DNA of 64,000 nucleotides from Carcharhinus longimanus. Taxonomy: Eukaryota. The DNA is taken from contig JASCQW010000162.1 in assembly GCA_030264375.1 (NCBI GenBank), forward strand, positions 84,758,593 to 84,822,592, given 5' to 3'. Position numbers and translations under genes: made by a program. Shown here one piece after another: positions 4,271 through 56,715 of this stretch; the stretch's first letter is position 1; every line of letters begins with the position of its first letter. The notes beneath the pieces are model-generated. The model had not been told where the DNA came from. It saw only the letters and a list, made by a program, of their open reading frames with translations, and made no database searches.

Positions 4271-4285
4271 TTAACAGTTCGGATT

Positions 4286-4685
4286 CATAAGAACTAGGAG
4301 CAGGAGGAGGCCATCTAGCCTTTCATGCTTGCCCCACCTTTCAATAAGATCATGGCTGATCTGAAGTGGATCAGTTCCACTTTCCCACTTTCTCCCCATA
4401 ACCCTTAATTCACCTATCAGAAACCTATCTACCCGTGACTTAAATATATTCANNNNNNNNNNNNNNNNNNNNNNNNNNNNNNNNNNNNNNNNNNNNNNNN
4501 NNNNNNNNNNNNNNNNNNNNNNNNNNNNNNNNNNNNNNNNNNNNNNNNNNNNTAAGGCCTCAGCCATTTCCTCATCTCCCACCACTAAATCCCCCCTCTC
4601 ATCCTCTAAGGGTCCAACATTCACTGTAGCCAGCCTCCTCTTTATATATTTGTAAAAACTTTTACTGTCCTTTTTTTATATTCAG
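4286..4685 (-). mobile_element. 5'-truncated CR1 LINE spanning a gap
   Basis: NVGPLEDERGDLVVGDEEMAEAL plus a CR1 3' UTR tail. Confidence 0.8.
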
Positions 4686-9615: not shown

Positions 9616-9705
9616 TTAAAGAAGTCCCACCATCTGGTCAATCTGCTGCATGTAAACTCCTTTCAAGGGCAGCGCGTATCTCCGCTCACTGGGGACTCTG
9701 CTGCA
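9616..9705 (-). CDS. EDEM1: EDEM1 exon 12, coding part with TAA stop
   Basis: acag|[29 protein letters not shown], matching the vertebrate EDEM1 C-terminus. Confidence 0.95.
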
Positions 9706-10530
9706 CTGTGGAAACATTATTTTTTGAAGCAATTAGTTTTATCACAATAGTATCATGTGCTGCCAAGTTAGAATAGGGGTGATTAATTTTATACAAACAA
9801 ATGGTTCACGAACATATGCAAATTGCTGCAATTTTTTTTAAAAATGCACAAGGATTTTTAACCTGCATATTTGCCAAACTAGATATGCACAGTAGTACAT
9901 TATACTTGATACAGCCAGGAATGTGCACATTCCCATTAACCAATACTTCCCAAATTGAACACGTTATTAGAATACCCATTTTGCAGTACAAACCAATACT
10001 CTTCATCTAGAAGAGGGGGGAAAGAACTCAAATACTACTCCATGAACAATTCTGTGCAAATTGTTTTATCAGTTGTGCAGTTTTATCTAAAGCCTTTTGG
10101 ATTAACTTTTATGTTCAAACACAAGCCTGCACTACAGAAAAGCCCCATCTAATGCAACGTAGATTCACTTTATTTGTAACTTTACTCTTCAGACCATCTG
10201 AAGTTAATGATACTTTGAAACCGATGATGAGATCCAGACCAGAGATCCAGATCAGTGATCCACAGCAACAGCAGAACACAAACTTCCTGGTTGCTAGATT
10301 TAGGCCTCTGAGGCAAAACAACAAACCATCAAGGTAACTCTGAACCAGAGAGAGAGAAAGAGAGAGAAAAATACAGGATATATAAACTGCTGGTCATGAT
10401 CTTACATTACAACATGTGCACAATCTCAGGCTGGACACACTCAATGGTAGCCTAAAAAAAGGGTCCAGTATATAGAAAACAAGAGTTCCATTCTTTAAAT
10501 CGTGCAAATCCCCGAGCTTAGTTTACTTAC

Positions 10531-11317
10531 TGTGATGTTAGTGTACTTTTAGGAGATTTTCTTTTTAAATTATGTTCTCTGCAGTTCTGTGTTGCCAAGT
10601 TGTCCGTAGAAGCACTTTATTGCTCCTTAAATGGAGTTTGTTTGTGCTTACTTTGGGATCTTTTAGGACCCTGCATTATTATGAAGGTCATGTGTTTTGG
10701 ACAGTTTTTTCCCCCTTCCTAGTGAATTTAAGGCTTAATTTTCCATTTTGGCTGGCAGCCTATTTAGTTTTATAAGGGACGTCAAGCTGAAAGTAATATT
10801 TCTCTCTCGGTTTTGGAAATTCTGCTGGTTAGCTGCAAGTATGGTTTCTTGCCTTCCTGAAGTGGAGATTCTGCGTTGTTGGCTCGACCAGCATATCTCC
10901 CTGGCGTTCTGACAAGCTGTTCTGACTCCAAGCTCGTCTGTGGGCCCCTCAAAGAACTGCAGCATTCATCCAAAGGACTCAGTCCCACTATCACATCAGC
11001 TTTAGTCTTTGCTGTGTTAAACATGTGGAAAGTTTTTTTTGGTCTATGGGAAATTTGTTCGACTGGAACATTTTAGATATATTTAAGGGTTAGACATGGT
11101 CGTGATTGTGTTTTTGTTTGGAATTGATAAAAGTTATTACTAATTTTCTTTCTATACGTTAAATATATTCTTAAATAAACTCAATTTGATTAAAAGTTCT
11201 AGGTCAGTTGAATCATGAGGTGAAACATATTATGCTTATCCTAGCCAAATTCAACATGCAAAACTCAGGATCCAGACAGGCTTCAGAAAACACTTGTTTC
11301 TGACCCAAATTATAACA
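10531..11317 (+). mobile_element. Solo LTR (787 bp) with 5-bp TSD CTTAC in EDEM1 intron 11
   Basis: Begins TGTGAT and ends ATAACA (TG...CA with an imperfect terminal inverted repeat). CTTAC lies at both 10526-10530 and 11318-11322. A TATA-like TTATAAG near 10770 and AATAAA at 11174-11179 are on the + strand. Confidence 0.8.
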
Positions 11318-11322
11318 CTTAC

Positions 11323-11508
11323 ATTAATGCTGGAATTGGCAGGTTTGTGGTCCAGCACTCCAGAGTTATCTACAGTACCTTCTTCTTTAGAAGATACATC
11401 TTCCCAAGGTTTTTCTCTGAAAAGTTTATCTACTGGCAAAATATGGCCTTCTGTTGTGAAAATATATTTGCTCCCAGACCTGTGCAATGGGTTATCTTCA
11501 TCAAATAG
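11323..11508 (-). CDS. EDEM1: EDEM1 exon 11 (186 nt)
   Basis: tcag|LFDEDNPLHRSGSKYIFTTEGHILPVDKLFREKPWEDVSSKEEGTVDNSGVLDHKPANSSIN|GTAAGT. Confidence 0.94.
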
Positions 11509-13425
11509 CTGATCAGGCAGTAAAAAGAAAGATAGATTAAAGTTGGTTTCATCCACACAATTAATACTAAAAGCAACTAGAACAGAATCTTATCTGTCTC
11601 AAACACCACGAATGGTCTAACAATGTAAAATCTTAATCTATTCCCATTAAATAATACAACAGGATGTCAAATGTAAGCTTGTGAAAAACACTTACAGCAG
11701 ATACCAGAAGGAATTTGTTTACACGAGGAGTGACGAACATCGAAAATGAATTTTCAAACAGTCGTAGACAAACATGCCTACTGGGGTTTGGGGTAGTGAA
11801 GAGACACGAAAACATGGTTGGATGCTAGGTTGAAATTGCTCAAAAGTTGAAGCCTTGAATGGATCAAATGACCACTTTTCAATCTTAACTTCTTACAGTC
11901 ACTGACATTTTATACTTGGACCTTCAGAACTCATCGATCCATACTGTTATTTACATAAACATCTTTGTGAAACTTTTGGTAAGAGAGCAAAGATGGGAAT
12001 TATCAAGTGCAAAAGGTACTGCAGCACTCCAAATAAGTGACCAAAACTTCATAGTTGTGGGAAAGTATACCAAATCTGTTCATAAGGGCACAGGTGACTG
12101 TGCATTCACCCAAAGTGAGTTGATCATAAAGCCAGGGAGAATCTGTATAGGGAAAATCATGTTTAATGAAGTTAGCTGAATTTTATGAAGGGATAATAAA
12201 TGTGGTAGACAGGGAGTACCAATGTATTTTATGCATATAGACTTCCAAAAGATATTTGGCAAGCTGAATGATAATGCAAAAGGAACAGAGAACCATACAA
12301 CCCAAGTCTGTCAATGGCACTCTTTGTTGTAGAATATATCATAGAATGCTTATGGCAAATATGTTATGCCCACACTCCAAGAGTACCTTAGCTAATTACA
12401 TTCTCCTGCCTGTCATCCTGCAATTTGATTGTCTAATTTGGTTTTGAAAACTGCAATTGAATCTGCCTCTTTTCAGGCAACGCATTCCAGACCCCAACAA
12501 TCTGGAGGTAAAAATTAAATCTCATCACTGAATATTTCCCTTTCAGACAATACATTCCAAATCTCAATTTTTCAGGCACAAATTCCATATCACAATATTA
12601 TTGGTATGTTTATTAATTACTGTAAATCTGTCTTCTCTGGTCATTACCCACCTGCCTCTCAAAATTGTTCCTTTTATTTACTCTATCAAAACCAGGGTTT
12701 TTAATTTTCAGAAGCGTAAAGAGAATAACTTCTTTGTCTCTAAATGTAACTGGGTCCCTCACTCACTTACGATTCTAGTAATTCTCCTTTTCATCCTCAC
12801 CACTTCCTAAAGTGTGTTATCCAGAAATGGACAAAATTCACCAATGGATCCTCACAATTGAGCATTACTTCATGCTTTGTACAAGCCAAGGAAGGATTTT
12901 GTGTAAATTTTTTTTAAAAAACAACCTTCTGAACTTGTCCTGCTACCTTCAAAGATTTTGCTGCACCTGCACCTCTTTTCATGTTACCATTTAAATGATA
13001 CTGCCTCTCATTCTCCCTACCAAAACAAATTACTTCAGACTTGGTGTTAACCTGAATTTGCCACACGTCTGCTCATTTCATCAGTCTATGTTATTTGATT
13101 ATGAAGAGTAGAACGTGCAATTTAACATGGAACACATTGCCCTCGTCCAACCATTTCCCATCCTATATCCTTGTTTCACATGAAGGCTTTGCTTGGTCTC
13201 GGCTCTCTATACACAATATTGTGGAACATACTGGTGTCATACAGTAAGGTAGTAGCATTCAAATTATTACGAGTTCAGAAATAATTTGTCTTCAGTGTTA
13301 CAGCTTTGAACCTCAGATCAATTATTCTATAGTTATACATTTTTAAAAAACATCCTGACAAGAATATTAATATTAGCAAGTACTCCCTTTAGTTATAATT
13401 CTACTTAATGTTTACAGAAACATAC

Positions 13426-13522
13426 CAAATATAAATATTTACAAGTCTCGCTGAGAAAGAAGCTCTCCATTCGATCCTCCTTCGACTTGTCTATTACATG
13501 GTGAAGTGTGGCATAACCACAT
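13426..13522 (-). CDS. EDEM1: EDEM1 exon 10 (97 nt)
   Basis: atag|[33 protein letters not shown]|GTATG. Confidence 0.96.
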
Positions 13523-15589: not shown

Positions 15590-15840
15590 TAAACCTTTTA
15601 GGACTCGGATGAGGAGAAATTTTTTCACCCAGAGTGGTGGGCCTGTGGAATTCACTACCACAGAAAGCAGTTGAGGCCAAACGTTAAATGCTTTCAAGAA
15701 GGGGTTGATTTTGCTCCTGAAGCAAAGAGGATGAATGGATGTGGGGGAAGGTGGGATCAGGCTAGTGTGCCATGATCATAATGGTGGAGCAGGCTCGAAG
15801 CACCAGGTAGCCTACTCCTGCTCCTATTTACTATGTTTCA
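15590..15840 (+). mobile_element. CR1 3' end
   Basis: FRTRMRRNFFTQ..V.LWNSLPQ-like segment and the tail gcctactcctgctcctattt. Confidence 0.8.
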
Positions 15841-19369: not shown

Positions 19370-22158
19370 CAAACATAAGGTCACTTCTTCTGAATGCTCG
19401 TAGCATTTGGAACAAGGTAAATGAATTGACAACACAAATCATCGTGAATGAGTAAGATTTGATGGCCAGACATCAACAGACATGGCTTCAGGATGGTCAC
19501 AACTGGGAGTTAAATATCCAGGAGTATCAGACTGTTCCAAGGACAGACTAGAAGGTAAGGGAGGTGATGTAGCTCTGTTATTTAAGGATAACATCAGGGC
19601 GGTGGTGAGAGATGATATAGATTCTATGGAAAACAAGGTTGAATCCATTTGGTGGAAATTAGAAAGTGAGAAAAAGTCACTGATAGGCGTAGTCTTCAAT
19701 TTGATTTATTATTGCCACATGTTAACATACAGTGAAAAGCATTGTTTCTTTTAACTATAGAGCACCAAACAATATCATGGTGAGGTGAGAAATAAAAGAA
19801 ACAACTGCACGTAAAACTGGTACAACAATCATCATGGGAGATTTTAATCAACATGTCGATTGGTCAAACCAGGTCAGTCAAGGCAGCCTTGAGGTGGAAT
19901 TCATAGAATGCATTCACAATAGCTTCCTTGAACAGTATGTAATGGAACCTTCGAGGGAGCAAGCTATCCTAGATCTGGTCCTGTGTAATGAGACAGGAAT
20001 AATTAATGATCTCACAGTTAGGGATCCTCTCGGTAGGAGCAATCACAGTATGACTGAACTTAAAATACAGATGCATCGTGAGAAGGTAAAATCCAATACC
20101 GATGTCTTGTGTTTAAACAACAGAGACTACAATGGGTTAAGGAAGGAGTTGGCTACTGTAGACTGGGAGCAAAAACTTTATGGTGGGACAACTGAGGGAC
20201 AGTGGAGGACATTCAAAGTGATTTTTCACAGTGCTCAGCAAAAGTATATACCAGTGATAAGGAGGACAGTAGGAAAACAGATACACAGCCATGGATATCT
20301 AAGGAAATAAAGGAGGGTATCAAATTGAAAGAAAATGCAAAGTGGCAAAGATTAGTGGGAAACAAGAGGATTGAGAAAACTTTAAAGGTCAACAGAAGGT
20401 CACAAAAAAGTTATAAAGAAAATAAATGGATGAGAGAAAACTAGCTCAGTATAAAAACAGATAGCAAACATTTCTACAAATATATAAAACGAAAGAGTGG
20501 CTAAAGTAAACATTGGTCCTTTAGAAGATGAGAAGGGGGATGTAATAACTGGAAATGGCTAAAGCATTGAACAGGTATTTTGGTGTCAGTCTTCACAGAG
20601 GAAGACACAAATAACATGCCAAAAATTGGTGACAAGGTGGCTATGGGAGATGAGGACCTAGAAACTGTCATCACTAAAGAGTTAGTGCTGGGCAAGCTAA
20701 TGGGGCTAAAGGTAGATAAGTCTCCTGGCCCTGATGGAATGTAACCCAGGGATGGCGGAGAAGTAGCAAATGCACTATTTACCAAAATTTGCTGGACTCT
20801 GGGGTGATTCCCGCAGATTAGAAAACAGCAAGTTTGACACCACTGTTTCAAAAAGGAGGTAGACAAAAGGTGGGTAACTATAGACTGGTTTGCTTAACTT
20901 CTGTAGTAGGGAAAATGTTTGAAACTATTAAGGACAAAACAGCGAGACATCTGAATATAAATTGTCCCATTGGGAAGACGCAGCATGGGTTCATGAAGGG
21001 CAGGTCACGTTTGATTTAGTGGAATTCCTTCAGAACAATACATGCACAGTGGACACTGGGTAACTTGTGGATGTGGTGTACCTGGATTTCCAGAAGGCAT
21101 TTGACAAGGTGCCACACCAATGGCTGCTGCACACAATAAAGGTGCATGGTGTTAAAAGTATTGTATTAGCATGGATAGAAGGTTGGTTAACTAACAGAAA
21201 GCAAAGAGTGGGAATAAATAGATGTTTTCTGGTTGGTGATCAGTGACTAACGATGTGCCTCAGGGATCAGTATTGCAAACGCAATTGTTTATGATTTACA
21301 TAGATGACTTGAAGTTGGGACCAAGTGTAGTGTGTGAAAATTCACAGATGACACTAAGGTGAGTGGTAGGGCAAAGTATGCAGAGGACAGAGTCTGCAAA
21401 GGGATATAGATAGTCTAAGTGAGTGGGCGAGGGTCTCGCAGATGGAGTACAATGTTGGTAAAAGAGGTCATCTGTTTTGATAGAAATAACAGCACAATGA
21501 TCTATTTAAATAGTGTCCTTGTGCATGAATCACAAGAAGTTAGTTTGCAGGTGGAGCAGGTAATTAAGGCAAATGGAATTTTGTCCTTCATTGCTAGAGG
21601 GATGGAGTTTAAAAACAGCGAGGTTATGTTACAGCTGTTAAGGTGCTGATGAGGCCACACTTGGAGTATTGTGTACAGTTTTGGTTTCCTTACTTGAGAA
21701 AGGATTAGTGGCACTGGAGGGGGAACAGAGGAGATTCATTAGGTTGATACTGGAGTTGAGAGGGTTGGCTTTCAGATGAATGAGCAGAGGTCTTATAGAA
21801 ACATATGAAGAGATAGGTACGATAGACTCAGATTGTTTCCACTGGCAGGTGAAACTAGAACTAGACGGACATGACCTCAAAATAAAGGGGAACAGATTTA
21901 GGACTGAGTTGAAAAGGAACTTCTTCAACCAAAAGGGTTGTGAATCCAGGGAATTCCCTGCCCAGTGAAACAGTTGAGGTTATCTCAGTGTTTTTAAGGC
22001 AAGGATAGATAAATATTTGAACAGTAAAGAAATTAAGGGCTTTGGGGAGCAGGCAGGCAAGCGGAATTGAGTCCACAAAAAGATCAGCCATGATCTTATG
22101 GAATGGCGGAGCAGGCTTGAGGGCCTGAATGGCCTACTCCTGCTCCTAGTTCTTACGA
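19370..22158 (+). mobile_element. Degenerate CR1-clade LINE, ORF2 (APE endonuclease + RT) through the 3' tail, in EDEM1 intron 6
   Basis: Motifs NARSI..KVNEL, MGDFN, LDLVL, PGPDG, NYRLVCLTSVVGK, QHGF, YLDFQKAFDKVPH, VPQGSVL and FTDDTK, with many stops and frameshifts. CR1-type 3' end ggcctactcctgctcctagttcttacg. Confidence 0.92.
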
Positions 22159-23230
22159 ATCATGGAACAGGGAAATTAAAGTAAATCAAAGCAAACCCAC
22201 AAGCTCCAGCTCTATTCAGGCAACACCTGATTGAAGTGGCATAACAGCCACTACAATCAGGTGCTACATTATTTTTGCTTCAACATAATCTGTTTAAACA
22301 CCAAATCAAGCAAAGAAACAAGTTTTGCATGCCAACATTGTAAATGTTTTCAAATAATTTGTCAGACAAATTTCACAATTTTTTTGTGTAAAAAGCAGCG
22401 TAAGAATCTTTTTTAAAAAGATAGTCATTTTGCTGAGGAGATTGCAGACTTAAGTTTTGATTACATCTAGTGGATTGGTTACTGTTGCACTCAAAAAAAA
22501 CATTGAAATTAGTGAATTTCCACAGGCCTAGAGGCTGTCGTCAAAGGCAGGACATGTGTTTTGCATAGATGGAACCACAGCCAATCAATTTGGTTACCAT
22601 TTTTGAAACCACATACAAGTTACTTCAATTAAAAAGCTGCAACTGTGCATTTTATAGCACAGAATGCAAGCATTATAGGTACCGAATCCTTTCGAAAGGA
22701 TTCTGGGTTATAATGTTAACACTTCCTAATAGACAACACTTTCCTATAATGGGAAACTTTGGAAATCAAGAGCAAGATAGTTTGCCTTGAATTGATTAAA
22801 CAAACCAAACCAATTTGCTCCAGGTAGCTGCATTTTCTATTAGTGTTTTTTCAAAATTTCATTAAAGCCCTTTCAAAATTTATTCATTGAAGGTAGAAAA
22901 ACCATTAAAATTAATATTGAATTACAAATTTACAATACAACCAAACATGAGTTTTTGGTGAGGCATCTCAAAAATTAATTAAGATGATTTTCATACCCAT
23001 TCCTCCCCCACCCCTTAATCATTAGTTATTTTGGAAGAAAAATTACAGAAATAGCTGTTTATTAGAATTACATTAATTTTCACAACTTCCAATTGCATGA
23101 AAACCTGTACTAATAAGGTACAAAGATGTACATGATTAAATAACACAAATATAACAAGGCTAGCAGAGGCTTCAGCTGACGATAGGAATTACCCATGAAC
23201 TAATAAGCTGTAGTTACAAGGATATCATAC

Positions 23231-32329: not shown

Positions 32330-32580
32330 GTGGTTAACACTGCTGCCTCTCAGTGCCAGGGTTCGATTTCCGGCTTGGGTCACTGTCTGTGTGGAGTTTG
32401 CACGTTCAGTCTGTGCCTGCTGGGTTTCCTCCAGGTGCTCTGGTTTCCTCCCACAGTCTGAAAGTCACGCCAGTTAGGTGCATTGCCCCAAATAGGCATT
32501 GAATGTGGCAACGGGGGGAATTCCACATTAACTGCAGTGTTAATGTAAGCCTAATGGGACTAATAAATAAACTTTAACTT
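32330..32580 (+). mobile_element. tRNA-derived V-SINE-like element
   Basis: GTGGTTAACAC...GGTTCGATT boxes, V-domain tgtctgtgtggagtttgcacgttc, A-rich tail. Confidence 0.8.
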
Positions 32581-41169: not shown

Positions 41170-42300
41170 CGCCAGCCTCTGCCCTATAATCTGACCGCCC
41201 CCCTCACCCCAGCCCTCGCCCTAACCCTCGCCGCCCCCCTCTGCCCCTCATCCTTTGCCCCCTCACCGTCCCCTGCCCCTCGCCCTCACTCACGGGTTGT
41301 CCCGGTCGGGCCCGCGGCCCCGGCAGTCGATGGGGTTGAGTTCATCCTGGGGGAAGGCATGCTCCATGTAGTTCTCGTAGCCGAAGTAAAACATTCGCAG
41401 GGCGGCCTCCTTCATGCGGCGGCGCTGCGGCTCGGGGAAGGCGCTGTATTTGCGGCTGTACTCGCCGAAACTGTCCAGGAAATTGTAGCCGGGCCCGGCG
41501 GGGCCGGGGCTGGAGGCCGCGGGGGCCCGCCTCTTACACACCATCGGCTGGCCGGCCGCCCGCTGCCGCTTGGCCCAAGTCTGGTCAAACCAGGACGGCT
41601 TCTTGTCGCCTTGGGCCGGAGCCTCGACCTGTCTGACCATACTCAAGCAAACCCGGAAATGCACCANNNNNNNNNNNNNNNNNNNNNNNNNNNNNNNNNN
41701 NNNNNNNNNNNNNNNNNNNNNNNNNNNNNNNNNNNNNNNNNNNNNNNNNNNNNNNNNNNNNNNNNNAAAGGCACCAGGTTCTGGTAGAATCCCAGGCTGG
41801 GCCCGAAGCCGAAGAGGAGCCAGAGGGTGAGGTGAAGGCCCAGCCGCAGCAGCAGGAGGCCCAACACTATCGAACGCCATTGCATTCTTAGACTGGAGCC
41901 ACCACATCCCCTCAGCGAGCGAGAGGCCAGCGGGGGGAGGGGCAACTGCCTGATCCTGCCTCCGGCCACCGCCCATTGGACGGCCTCCCGATGTGCTGCC
42001 CGCTCATTGGTCCCTCGAACTGCCGTTCACACACTTAGCGGCGTCACGAACGTTTCCCCGCCCCCTCTCATTCTGACCAATGGGAAGGCGCAGCTAAACC
42101 CCGCCCTGAGAATACGCCGTCTTTTCCCCGTGATTGACAGACAATCTGACCAATCGACAGTAATCACATCACACATCGCATCCAATCCACGATCTACAAA
42201 CTAACACGTAAGCCAATCGCCGGCGTCAGGGGAGCAGACATAGAGACAAGGGCTGGGGGCTGGCTGAATGGGGCAGGTGTATTCTGTCCACAACCGCAAA
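41170..42300. promoter_or_regulatory. CpG island and EDEM1 promoter with six CCAAT boxes, GC boxes and TGACG half-sites
   Basis: The only strongly GC/CpG-rich stretch in the window. ATTGG at 41975 and 42006; CCAAT at 42077, 42150, 42182 and 42213; CCGCCC boxes near 41969, 42058 and 42101. Confidence 0.85.
41294..41885 (-). CDS. EDEM1: EDEM1 coding exon 1 (signal/anchor segment, disordered linker, start of GH47 domain); contains assembly gap 41667-41766
   Basis: [35 protein letters not shown] before the gap and ...[38 protein letters not shown] after it. Donor CC|GTGAGT, phase 2. The frame differs across the gap because the N length is arbitrary. Confidence 0.93.
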
Positions 42301-42414: not shown

Positions 42415-42612
42415 GCGCGGTGGCACAATGAGTGGTTAGCACTGCTGCCTCTCCGCGCCAGGGACTTGGGTTTGATTCCGAGCTTGAATCAGTCTATGTG
42501 GAGTTTGCACCTTCTCCCCGTGTCTGCGTGGGTTTCCTCTGGCTGCTCCAGTTTCCTCCCACAGTCCGAAGATGTGCACATTAGGCAAATTGGCCATGCT
42601 AAATTCTGCCTT
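42415..42612 (+). mobile_element. HE1/V-SINE-like element just upstream of the EDEM1 promoter, followed by a Penelope-like end (42625-42662) and a gap
   Basis: GTGGTTAGCACTGCTGCC, GGGTTTGATTCC and the V-domain. Confidence 0.8.
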
Positions 42613-53424: not shown

Positions 53425-53713
53425 TTGGCCCATCAAGTCTGCACTGACTCACAACATCCCACTCTATCTCCATGGCCCAACACATTTACCCCACTAACCC
53501 CCTTAGCCTACATATCGTGGTGCACTAAACGGCAATTTTAGCATTGCTAATCCACCTAAGCTGAACAATGTTTGACTGTGGGAAGAAATCGGAACAGNNN
53601 NNNNNNNNNNNNNNNNNNNNNNNNNNNNNNNNNNNNNNNNNNNGCTGGAATTGAACCCAGGTCCCTGGCGCTGAGAGGCAGCAATGCTAACCACTCTGCC
53701 ACCATGCCATCCC
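53425..53713 (-). mobile_element. HE1-like SINE spanning a gap
   Basis: Minus strand GGTGGCAGAGTGGTTAGCATTGCTGCC...GGGTTCAATTCC. Confidence 0.85.
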
Positions 53714-56467: not shown

Positions 56468-56715
56468 CATAAGAACATAAGAACATAAGAAATAGGAGCA
56501 GGAGTAGGCCATCTGGCCCTTCGAGCCTGCCCCGCCATTCNNNNNNNNNNNNNNNNNNNNNNNNNNNNNNNNNNNNNNNNNNNNNNNNNNNNNNNNNNNN
56601 NNNNNNNNNNNNNNNNNNNNNNNNNNNNNNNNNNNNNNNNCCTTTCCATCGCTAACACCCGGCAAATTATTCACGTCCTCCTCCGTGAAGACCGAAACAA
56701 AAAAGTTATTCAAGA
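56468..56715 (-). mobile_element. Young CR1 LINE spanning a gap
   Basis: (cataagaa)3 tail and LNNFFVSVFTEEDVNNLP. Confidence 0.85.

Follow-up and report, generated by a model that had tools for sequence, protein, structure and literature searches.

Insertions whose target site duplication (TSD) spans a splice signal are already known, as the accounts of canine merle (PMC7349775) and of introners (PMC11282704) describe. In merle, a SINE is located at the splice acceptor in PMEL with a 15-bp TSD, and the use of cryptic sites has been reported (PMC7349775). Introners are described in review as elements that become new introns with TSD-derived splice sites (PMC11282704). More generally, fixed transposable elements within 20 bp of exons in human and mouse are described as biased toward donors, as shorter in length, and, in the case of LTRs near exons, as antisense (Zhang et al. 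2011, PMC3088655). A general literature search, in which EDEM1 and shark were not combined, found no paper on the insertion described here.

The locus described here is a solo LTR in the EDEM1 gene of Carcharhinus longimanus, located in a 64,000-nucleotide stretch of contig JASCQW010000162.1 (the window, whose coordinates are used throughout). As described for canine merle (PMC7349775), an antisense retroelement sits at a splice site, its apparent TSD spans the splice signal, and normal splicing can persist; however, the merle SINE is young, still polymorphic, and found at an acceptor, flanked by 15-bp duplications, whereas the EDEM1 LTR is old, shared, located at a donor, flanked by a 4- to 5-bp TSD, and without alternative use among the joints listed. 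Its position at a donor, antisense orientation, and short length fit the survivors of the "underrepresentation zone" described by Zhang et al. (PMC3088655), although, relative to that human and mouse survey, it is an extreme single shark case inside the six-base donor core. Like the introners covered in PMC11282704, the apparent TSD supplies splice site sequence, but the EDEM1 LTR sits within an existing intron, and no intron was gained.

EDEM1 comprises 12 exons on the minus strand of the window. Homologue mapping placed exons 1 to 11 from 41885 down to 11323 (in this gene model, exon 3 starts one codon short); when exon 12 is taken to begin at 9705, exons 2 to 12 are free of stops once joined, and the encoded C terminus is that of several named sharks. 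Exon 11 (186 nt; 11323..11508, minus strand) matches shark EDEM1 at up to 97%, and both of its joints are present in RNA contigs. The intron that follows it, intron 11 (1,617 nt; 9706..11322, minus strand), is delimited by RNA contig joints and contains the LTR. The coding part of exon 12 (9616..9705, minus strand) begins at the acceptor at 9705 and encodes 29 conserved residues plus the stop, with the 3' UTR extending to lower coordinates; this C terminus is kept across chondrichthyan and teleost homologues.

Several features of the gene model and its surroundings are recorded here as observations in their own right. An N gap of ~100 bases at 41665-41768 splits exon 1 and shifts its frame; it is likely a scaffolding artefact, since shark homologues have no missing sequence there. 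All three Heterodontus francisci EDEM1 isoforms listed (P0001, P0019, and P0027) lack the conserved exon 12 tail, with exon 11 running on into unrelated sequence, which may reflect a gap in the assembly or an annotation error for H. francisci; the tail of one isoform resembles a LINE reverse transcriptase. Within intron 11, short tandem GATCCAGA-like repeats (10200-10270) carry deletions of 13 to 16 bases among relatives. Examples of other dispersed repeats across the window are found at 4282-4362, 15780-15840, 22081-22162, 32330-32462, 42430-42570, 53647-53706, and 56482-56540; these are presumably SINEs and LINE 3' ends of the kind typical of shark genomes.

The LTR itself is a 787-bp TG...CA element at 10531..11317 on the plus strand, i.e., antisense to EDEM1, that begins with TGTGATG, ends with TATAACA, and is flanked by CTTAC at 10526-10530 and 11318-11322. 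This segment had been described from the sequence alone in an earlier note, and all of the statements made there about its sequence held. When the LTR was searched against its own genome, 40 of 4,623 first-look candidates were scored; many of these 40 span query positions 1 to 787, and the best other copies among them are 73 to 79% identical to the window copy. Alignments still ended at the LTR borders when 400 flanking bases were added to the query, and the terminal 20-mer of the LTR had 333 exact matches in the genome versus 0 for the reversed control. A chance TG...CA segment was ruled out by the copies ending at query positions 1 and 787 together with these 20-mer counts. The dispersed copies, along with members carrying two LTRs, bear out the earlier expectation that a genome search would reveal a multicopy LTR family.

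Family members also define the orientation and structure of the element through its ends, PPT, and PBS-like motif. Three of 30 LTR copies are preceded by a common sequence with a purine tract at its end, and this upstream position sets the sense strand of the LTR as the plus strand of the window. One two-LTR member, L032, carries the PBS-like motif TGGGGGCTC, a putative match to tRNA-Pro, downstream of its 5' LTR; a purine tract precedes its 3' LTR, and the element is flanked by CATG and CATA; LTRs are likewise paired in L140. Sequences downstream of other PBS-like ends (L125 to L127) are truncated elements or gaps, and L141 consists mostly of N. The window copy, by comparison with these members, is single: exon 11 lies on one side and host intron on the other, these flanks are not common to other copies, and no internal sequence is present, as the solo LTR designation in the earlier note had implied. 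An AATAAA in the LTR's own orientation (11174..11179, plus strand) is likely its poly(A) signal, a function assigned from the motif. The promoter of the LTR (10531-11317, plus strand) is oriented so as to read through exon 11 against the direction of EDEM1, and whatever activity it retained would yield antisense RNA. Some copies elsewhere in the genome occur in tandem, beginning exactly 4 bases after another copy (L085:1521-1534; the right flank of L016/L047), and this 4-base spacer has the length of the TSD.

The family affiliation of the LTR was assessed from members that retain internal sequence. L033 encodes gag-PR-INT-RT-RNaseH followed by an LTR of the window's family; relative to the protein P0044, residues 144-1564 are matched in order, with INT ahead of RT and RNase H, and RNase H reaches to ~200 bp of the 3' LTR. 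Four of the 150 integrase relatives listed were scanned at full length, and all four have SCAN, INT, and then RT. Translated matches (tblastn) to the element cover the SCAN region of P0044, P0050, and P0065, proteins that have SCAN hits. Direct Pfam scans of L032 and decayed pieces detected gypsy-type integrase domains; these scans detected no RT or SCAN match. Judged by its domain order, the LTR family is Gmr1-type Ty3/gypsy. An endogenous retrovirus was considered and rejected on the grounds that INT precedes RT in L033 and that RNase H runs to ~200 bp from the 3' LTR. Gmr1-like elements are described as having the organization SCAN-PR-INT-RT-RNaseH and are reported to be abundant in fish (bioRxiv 10.1101/2025.03.03.638093; PMC8220671). 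L033, which bears the window-type LTR, has the same domain order, but the window copy is a solo LTR alone, and L031, L032, and L140 have no match to the RT core. Of the four members inspected that retain internal sequence, these last three keep gag-PR-INT or its end, with no match to the RT/RNase H core, which suggests a candidate non-autonomous deletion subfamily using the same LTR as the window copy.

We compared the locus with relatives through 8 of the 22 sequencing runs listed, from organisms referred to here as B to G; the two runs of the distant organism G yielded 0 contigs at the locus. Contigs bridge the LTR borders at both ends in organism C and at the distal end in organisms B and D, such that the LTR is common to at least three relatives; in organism E, the border is implied by two overlapping contigs, neither of which alone satisfies the 31-letter rule. 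The window LTR differs from 12 full-length copies by a K2P distance of 0.18 to 0.22; within L032, the LTRs differ from each other by 0.19. Given that copies of the family are ~20% apart, each would have accumulated ~10% substitutions since insertion. The orthologous intron in relatives differs by ~2% (20 substitutions in ~0.9 kb, counted by hand), and from this ~20% versus ~2% we estimate that the insertion exceeds the divergence of these species in age by a factor of roughly ten. A recent, species-specific insertion was thus ruled out by the K2P distances and the presence of the LTR in relatives. The orthologous loci could be aligned as the earlier note had recommended, but the empty site that it had predicted was not seen among the relatives with contigs at the site, all of which carry the LTR.

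The short repeat that flanks the LTR reads GTAAG on the gene strand. One copy (11318..11322, minus strand) constitutes positions +1 to +5 of intron 11, as had been claimed, and is the working donor, as evidenced by its sequence and by the joint 9705-11323 in organisms B, C, and F; the second copy (10526..10530, minus strand) forms a distal decoy donor. The further claim that the whole donor had been duplicated as a 5-bp TSD is less secure. The repeat at the window copy is exact over 5 bp, without a direct 4-bp match, but the family norm is 4 bp. Among 46 solo copies pooled, 11 have exact 4-bp repeats and 30 have repeats within one mismatch (4.4 when shuffled), compared with 0 and 2, respectively, at 5 bp. 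The two underlying sets agree: in set one, with 22 copies kept from 48 unique loci (clean ends, no PPT/PBS, and the window copy excluded), 3 were exact and 16 within one mismatch at 4 bp (shuffled, 1.8), and in set two, with 24 kept from 50 loci (3 of the kept rows probably having wrong 3' ends), 8 were exact and 14 within one mismatch (shuffled, 2.6). At 5 bp, each set yielded 0 exact repeats and 1 within one mismatch. An exact 5-bp repeat does occur at one dropped locus (L024/L042), where the LTR end is degenerate, and L088 resembles a 5-bp duplication; 5-bp events thus probably make up a few percent.

The repeat also varies among relatives. The G of the distal GT corresponds to base 10530, a C on the plus strand of the window, and organisms D and E have T there, or A when read along the gene; the D and E contigs were recognized from how far this base lies from their ends (91 and 21), and all 10 differences in E are accounted for. 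Organism C matches the window here, since all 9 substitutions of its contig (X9 contig 26) fall elsewhere, and organism B probably does as well (13 of 14 substitutions listed elsewhere). By hand count, two substitutions in ~0.9 kb, at 10271 and 10530, set D and E apart from the window's group, and branch counts from the shared node of the unrooted tree are 8 for the window, 12 for D, and 12 for E. Since 10530 varies in D and E and the family norm is 4 bp, the 5-bp repeat may not all be true TSD. A rare 5-bp duplication, with the G later lost in D and E, has slightly better than an even chance of being the correct history; at a little under even stands a 4-bp duplication (TAAG, +2 to +5) with one extra junction base that would later have become G by mutation in the window's group. 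Under both histories, the LTR begins after +5 and provides the T at +6.

The resulting proximal donor reads AAT/GTAAGTG on the gene strand, with the T at +6 coming from the LTR end. The normal joint 9705-11323 was present in all three RNA-type assemblies (organisms B, C, and F), two of which (B and C) carry the LTR, in keeping with the earlier suggestion that the LTR end restores +6 and that normal splicing can survive; the joint on the other side of exon 11, 11508-13426, was likewise present in B, C, and F. These runs come from relatives of the window's species, and their RNA nature was guessed, with spliced joints present. The distal site, ACA/GTAAGTAAAC on the gene strand, lies 792 nt downstream, where a second consensus donor motif had been noted. 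Its match to positions +1 to +6 is perfect (GTAAGT), but by a simple count of matches to a general 9-position donor consensus, it scores 6 of 9 in its ACA exonic context, relative to 7 of 9 for the proximal donor and 5 to 8 for true EDEM1 donors. Such motifs are common: the 30,231 bases of EDEM1 introns contain 28 GTAAG and 7 GTAAGT decoys. Intron 11 has three GTAAG sites including the distal one, and the other two, AAA/GTAAGC inside the LTR (10646..10651, minus strand) and AAT/GTAAGA in native intron sequence (10400..10405, minus strand), equal it with 6 of 9 matches.

These sites set the terms for the alternative readings of the locus, the first of which was the earlier note's own: meaningful use of the distal donor would lengthen exon 11 into the LTR by 792 nt, create an NMD target, and tune the dose of EDEM1. 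The geometry that it requires is present, with the exon 11 read-through peptide, the in-frame TGA at 11253-11251 (11251..11253, minus strand), and the acceptor at 9705 all as previously described; because this stop would precede the hypothetical distal junction, the last one in the transcript, by 720 nt, the predicted outcome would be NMD and not a stable variant protein. Splice site insertions can moreover cause alternative splicing, as in the account of canine merle (PMC7349775), and an NMD target would be scarce at steady state and drop out of contigs. However, of the two junctions that the note had proposed to count, the normal one alone was found in RNA contigs: the distal joint 9705-10531 was absent among the 15 joints listed of 68, in assembled contigs, which drop rare variants and could miss low-level distal splicing. 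Intronic contigs from B (X4 contig 8, 9676-10982) and C (X9 contig 26, 10377-10727) run unbroken through the distal site, the former starting 30 bases within exon 12, at the branching of spliced and unspliced paths. A joint at 12693-10531 in X4 was disregarded, as it probably stems from a different genomic copy beside a repeat. Nor is the distal donor conserved: since its G is A in organisms D and E, these have no GT donor there. Its poor exonic context, the two equal GTAAG decoys in intron 11, and the 978-nt internal exon that its use would require also argue against it, an internal exon of that length being disfavored under exon definition. Given the missing joint, the unbroken contigs, the unconserved GT, and the abundance of decoys, the proposed isoform or dosage switch was not upheld, and we regard it as improbable; low-level, NMD-linked distal splicing, which finds no support here and has one direct mark against it, is equally so. 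It is fractionally less probable again that one shark group has an LTR-born poison 5' splice site in EDEM1, with low, stress-dependent use leading to NMD and relatives differing by G or A at 10530.

Two further readings appear more improbable than any of these. Intron 11 could remain unspliced and the transcript end at a gene-strand AATAAA within the LTR (10616..10621, minus strand), a possible intronic poly(A) signal, such that the last 29 residues would be swapped for 23 read-through residues in a stable mRNA that escapes NMD. The stop at 11251 and the X4 contigs covering intron 11 fit this reading, but X4 contig 8 passes 10621 without ending, and contigs extend over intron 10 too, a pattern that fits pre-mRNA. 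The read-through C terminus was found in no protein among 17 plus 2 hits and the 18 cluster members listed, and a protein search for read-through ORFs of other sharks returned 2 teleost-like proteins alone. We give a similarly small chance to the idea that the decoy is mildly harmful, whereby the GT came from a genuine 5-bp TSD and was adaptively lost, by change to A, in D and E. It is suggestive that one of just two substitutions in ~0.9 kb (10271 and 10530) strikes the G of the GT; on the other hand, the argument is post hoc, concerns a single event on an unrooted tree, and meets branch counts that fit an ancestral A at least equally, and a GT that was ancestral would have lasted for most of the element's age.

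We therefore consider it very likely that a solo Gmr1-type LTR lies antisense immediately after position +5 of EDEM1 intron 11, as a probably neutral insertion with a donor-sparing end, and that the distal GTAAGT is a likely unused decoy. A full element would have integrated at the exon 11 donor before these sharks diverged; by landing after +5 with TG as its end on the gene strand, it would have kept the donor as AAT/GTAAGT, and LTR-LTR recombination would then likely have left the solo copy. Landing one base earlier, in the 4-bp register usual for the family, would have turned the donor into GTAATG, at the cost of the G at +5 and the T at +6, and left an intact GTAAGT to compete with it from downstream. 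Alleles of this kind would likely have been purged, making survivorship a natural account. The spliceosome likely keeps to the proximal donor because this site defines an exon of 186 nt rather than 978 nt. Given that carriers splice normally and that the distal signal is missing in some relatives, the LTR is likely a harmless scar and not a regulatory switch; we infer that the insertion survived through donor preservation and that the decoy is unused.

The EDEM1 LTR is thus a tidy survivor of purifying selection. Its most likely meaning is textbook survivorship, in which an LTR became fixed inside a donor core as its cut position and TG end spared the donor, and an off-register cut possibly lay behind this fixation. 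The locus also carries a caution, that the apparent TSDs of old insertions can be partly coincidence, and the insertion can be used as a presence/absence marker in shark phylogeny. It would assume greater importance only if use of the distal donor were shown, in which case relatives with and without the GT would serve as a natural control; were the poison site real, the group that has it and its relatives would offer a natural on/off comparison for the birth of a regulated unproductive splice site.
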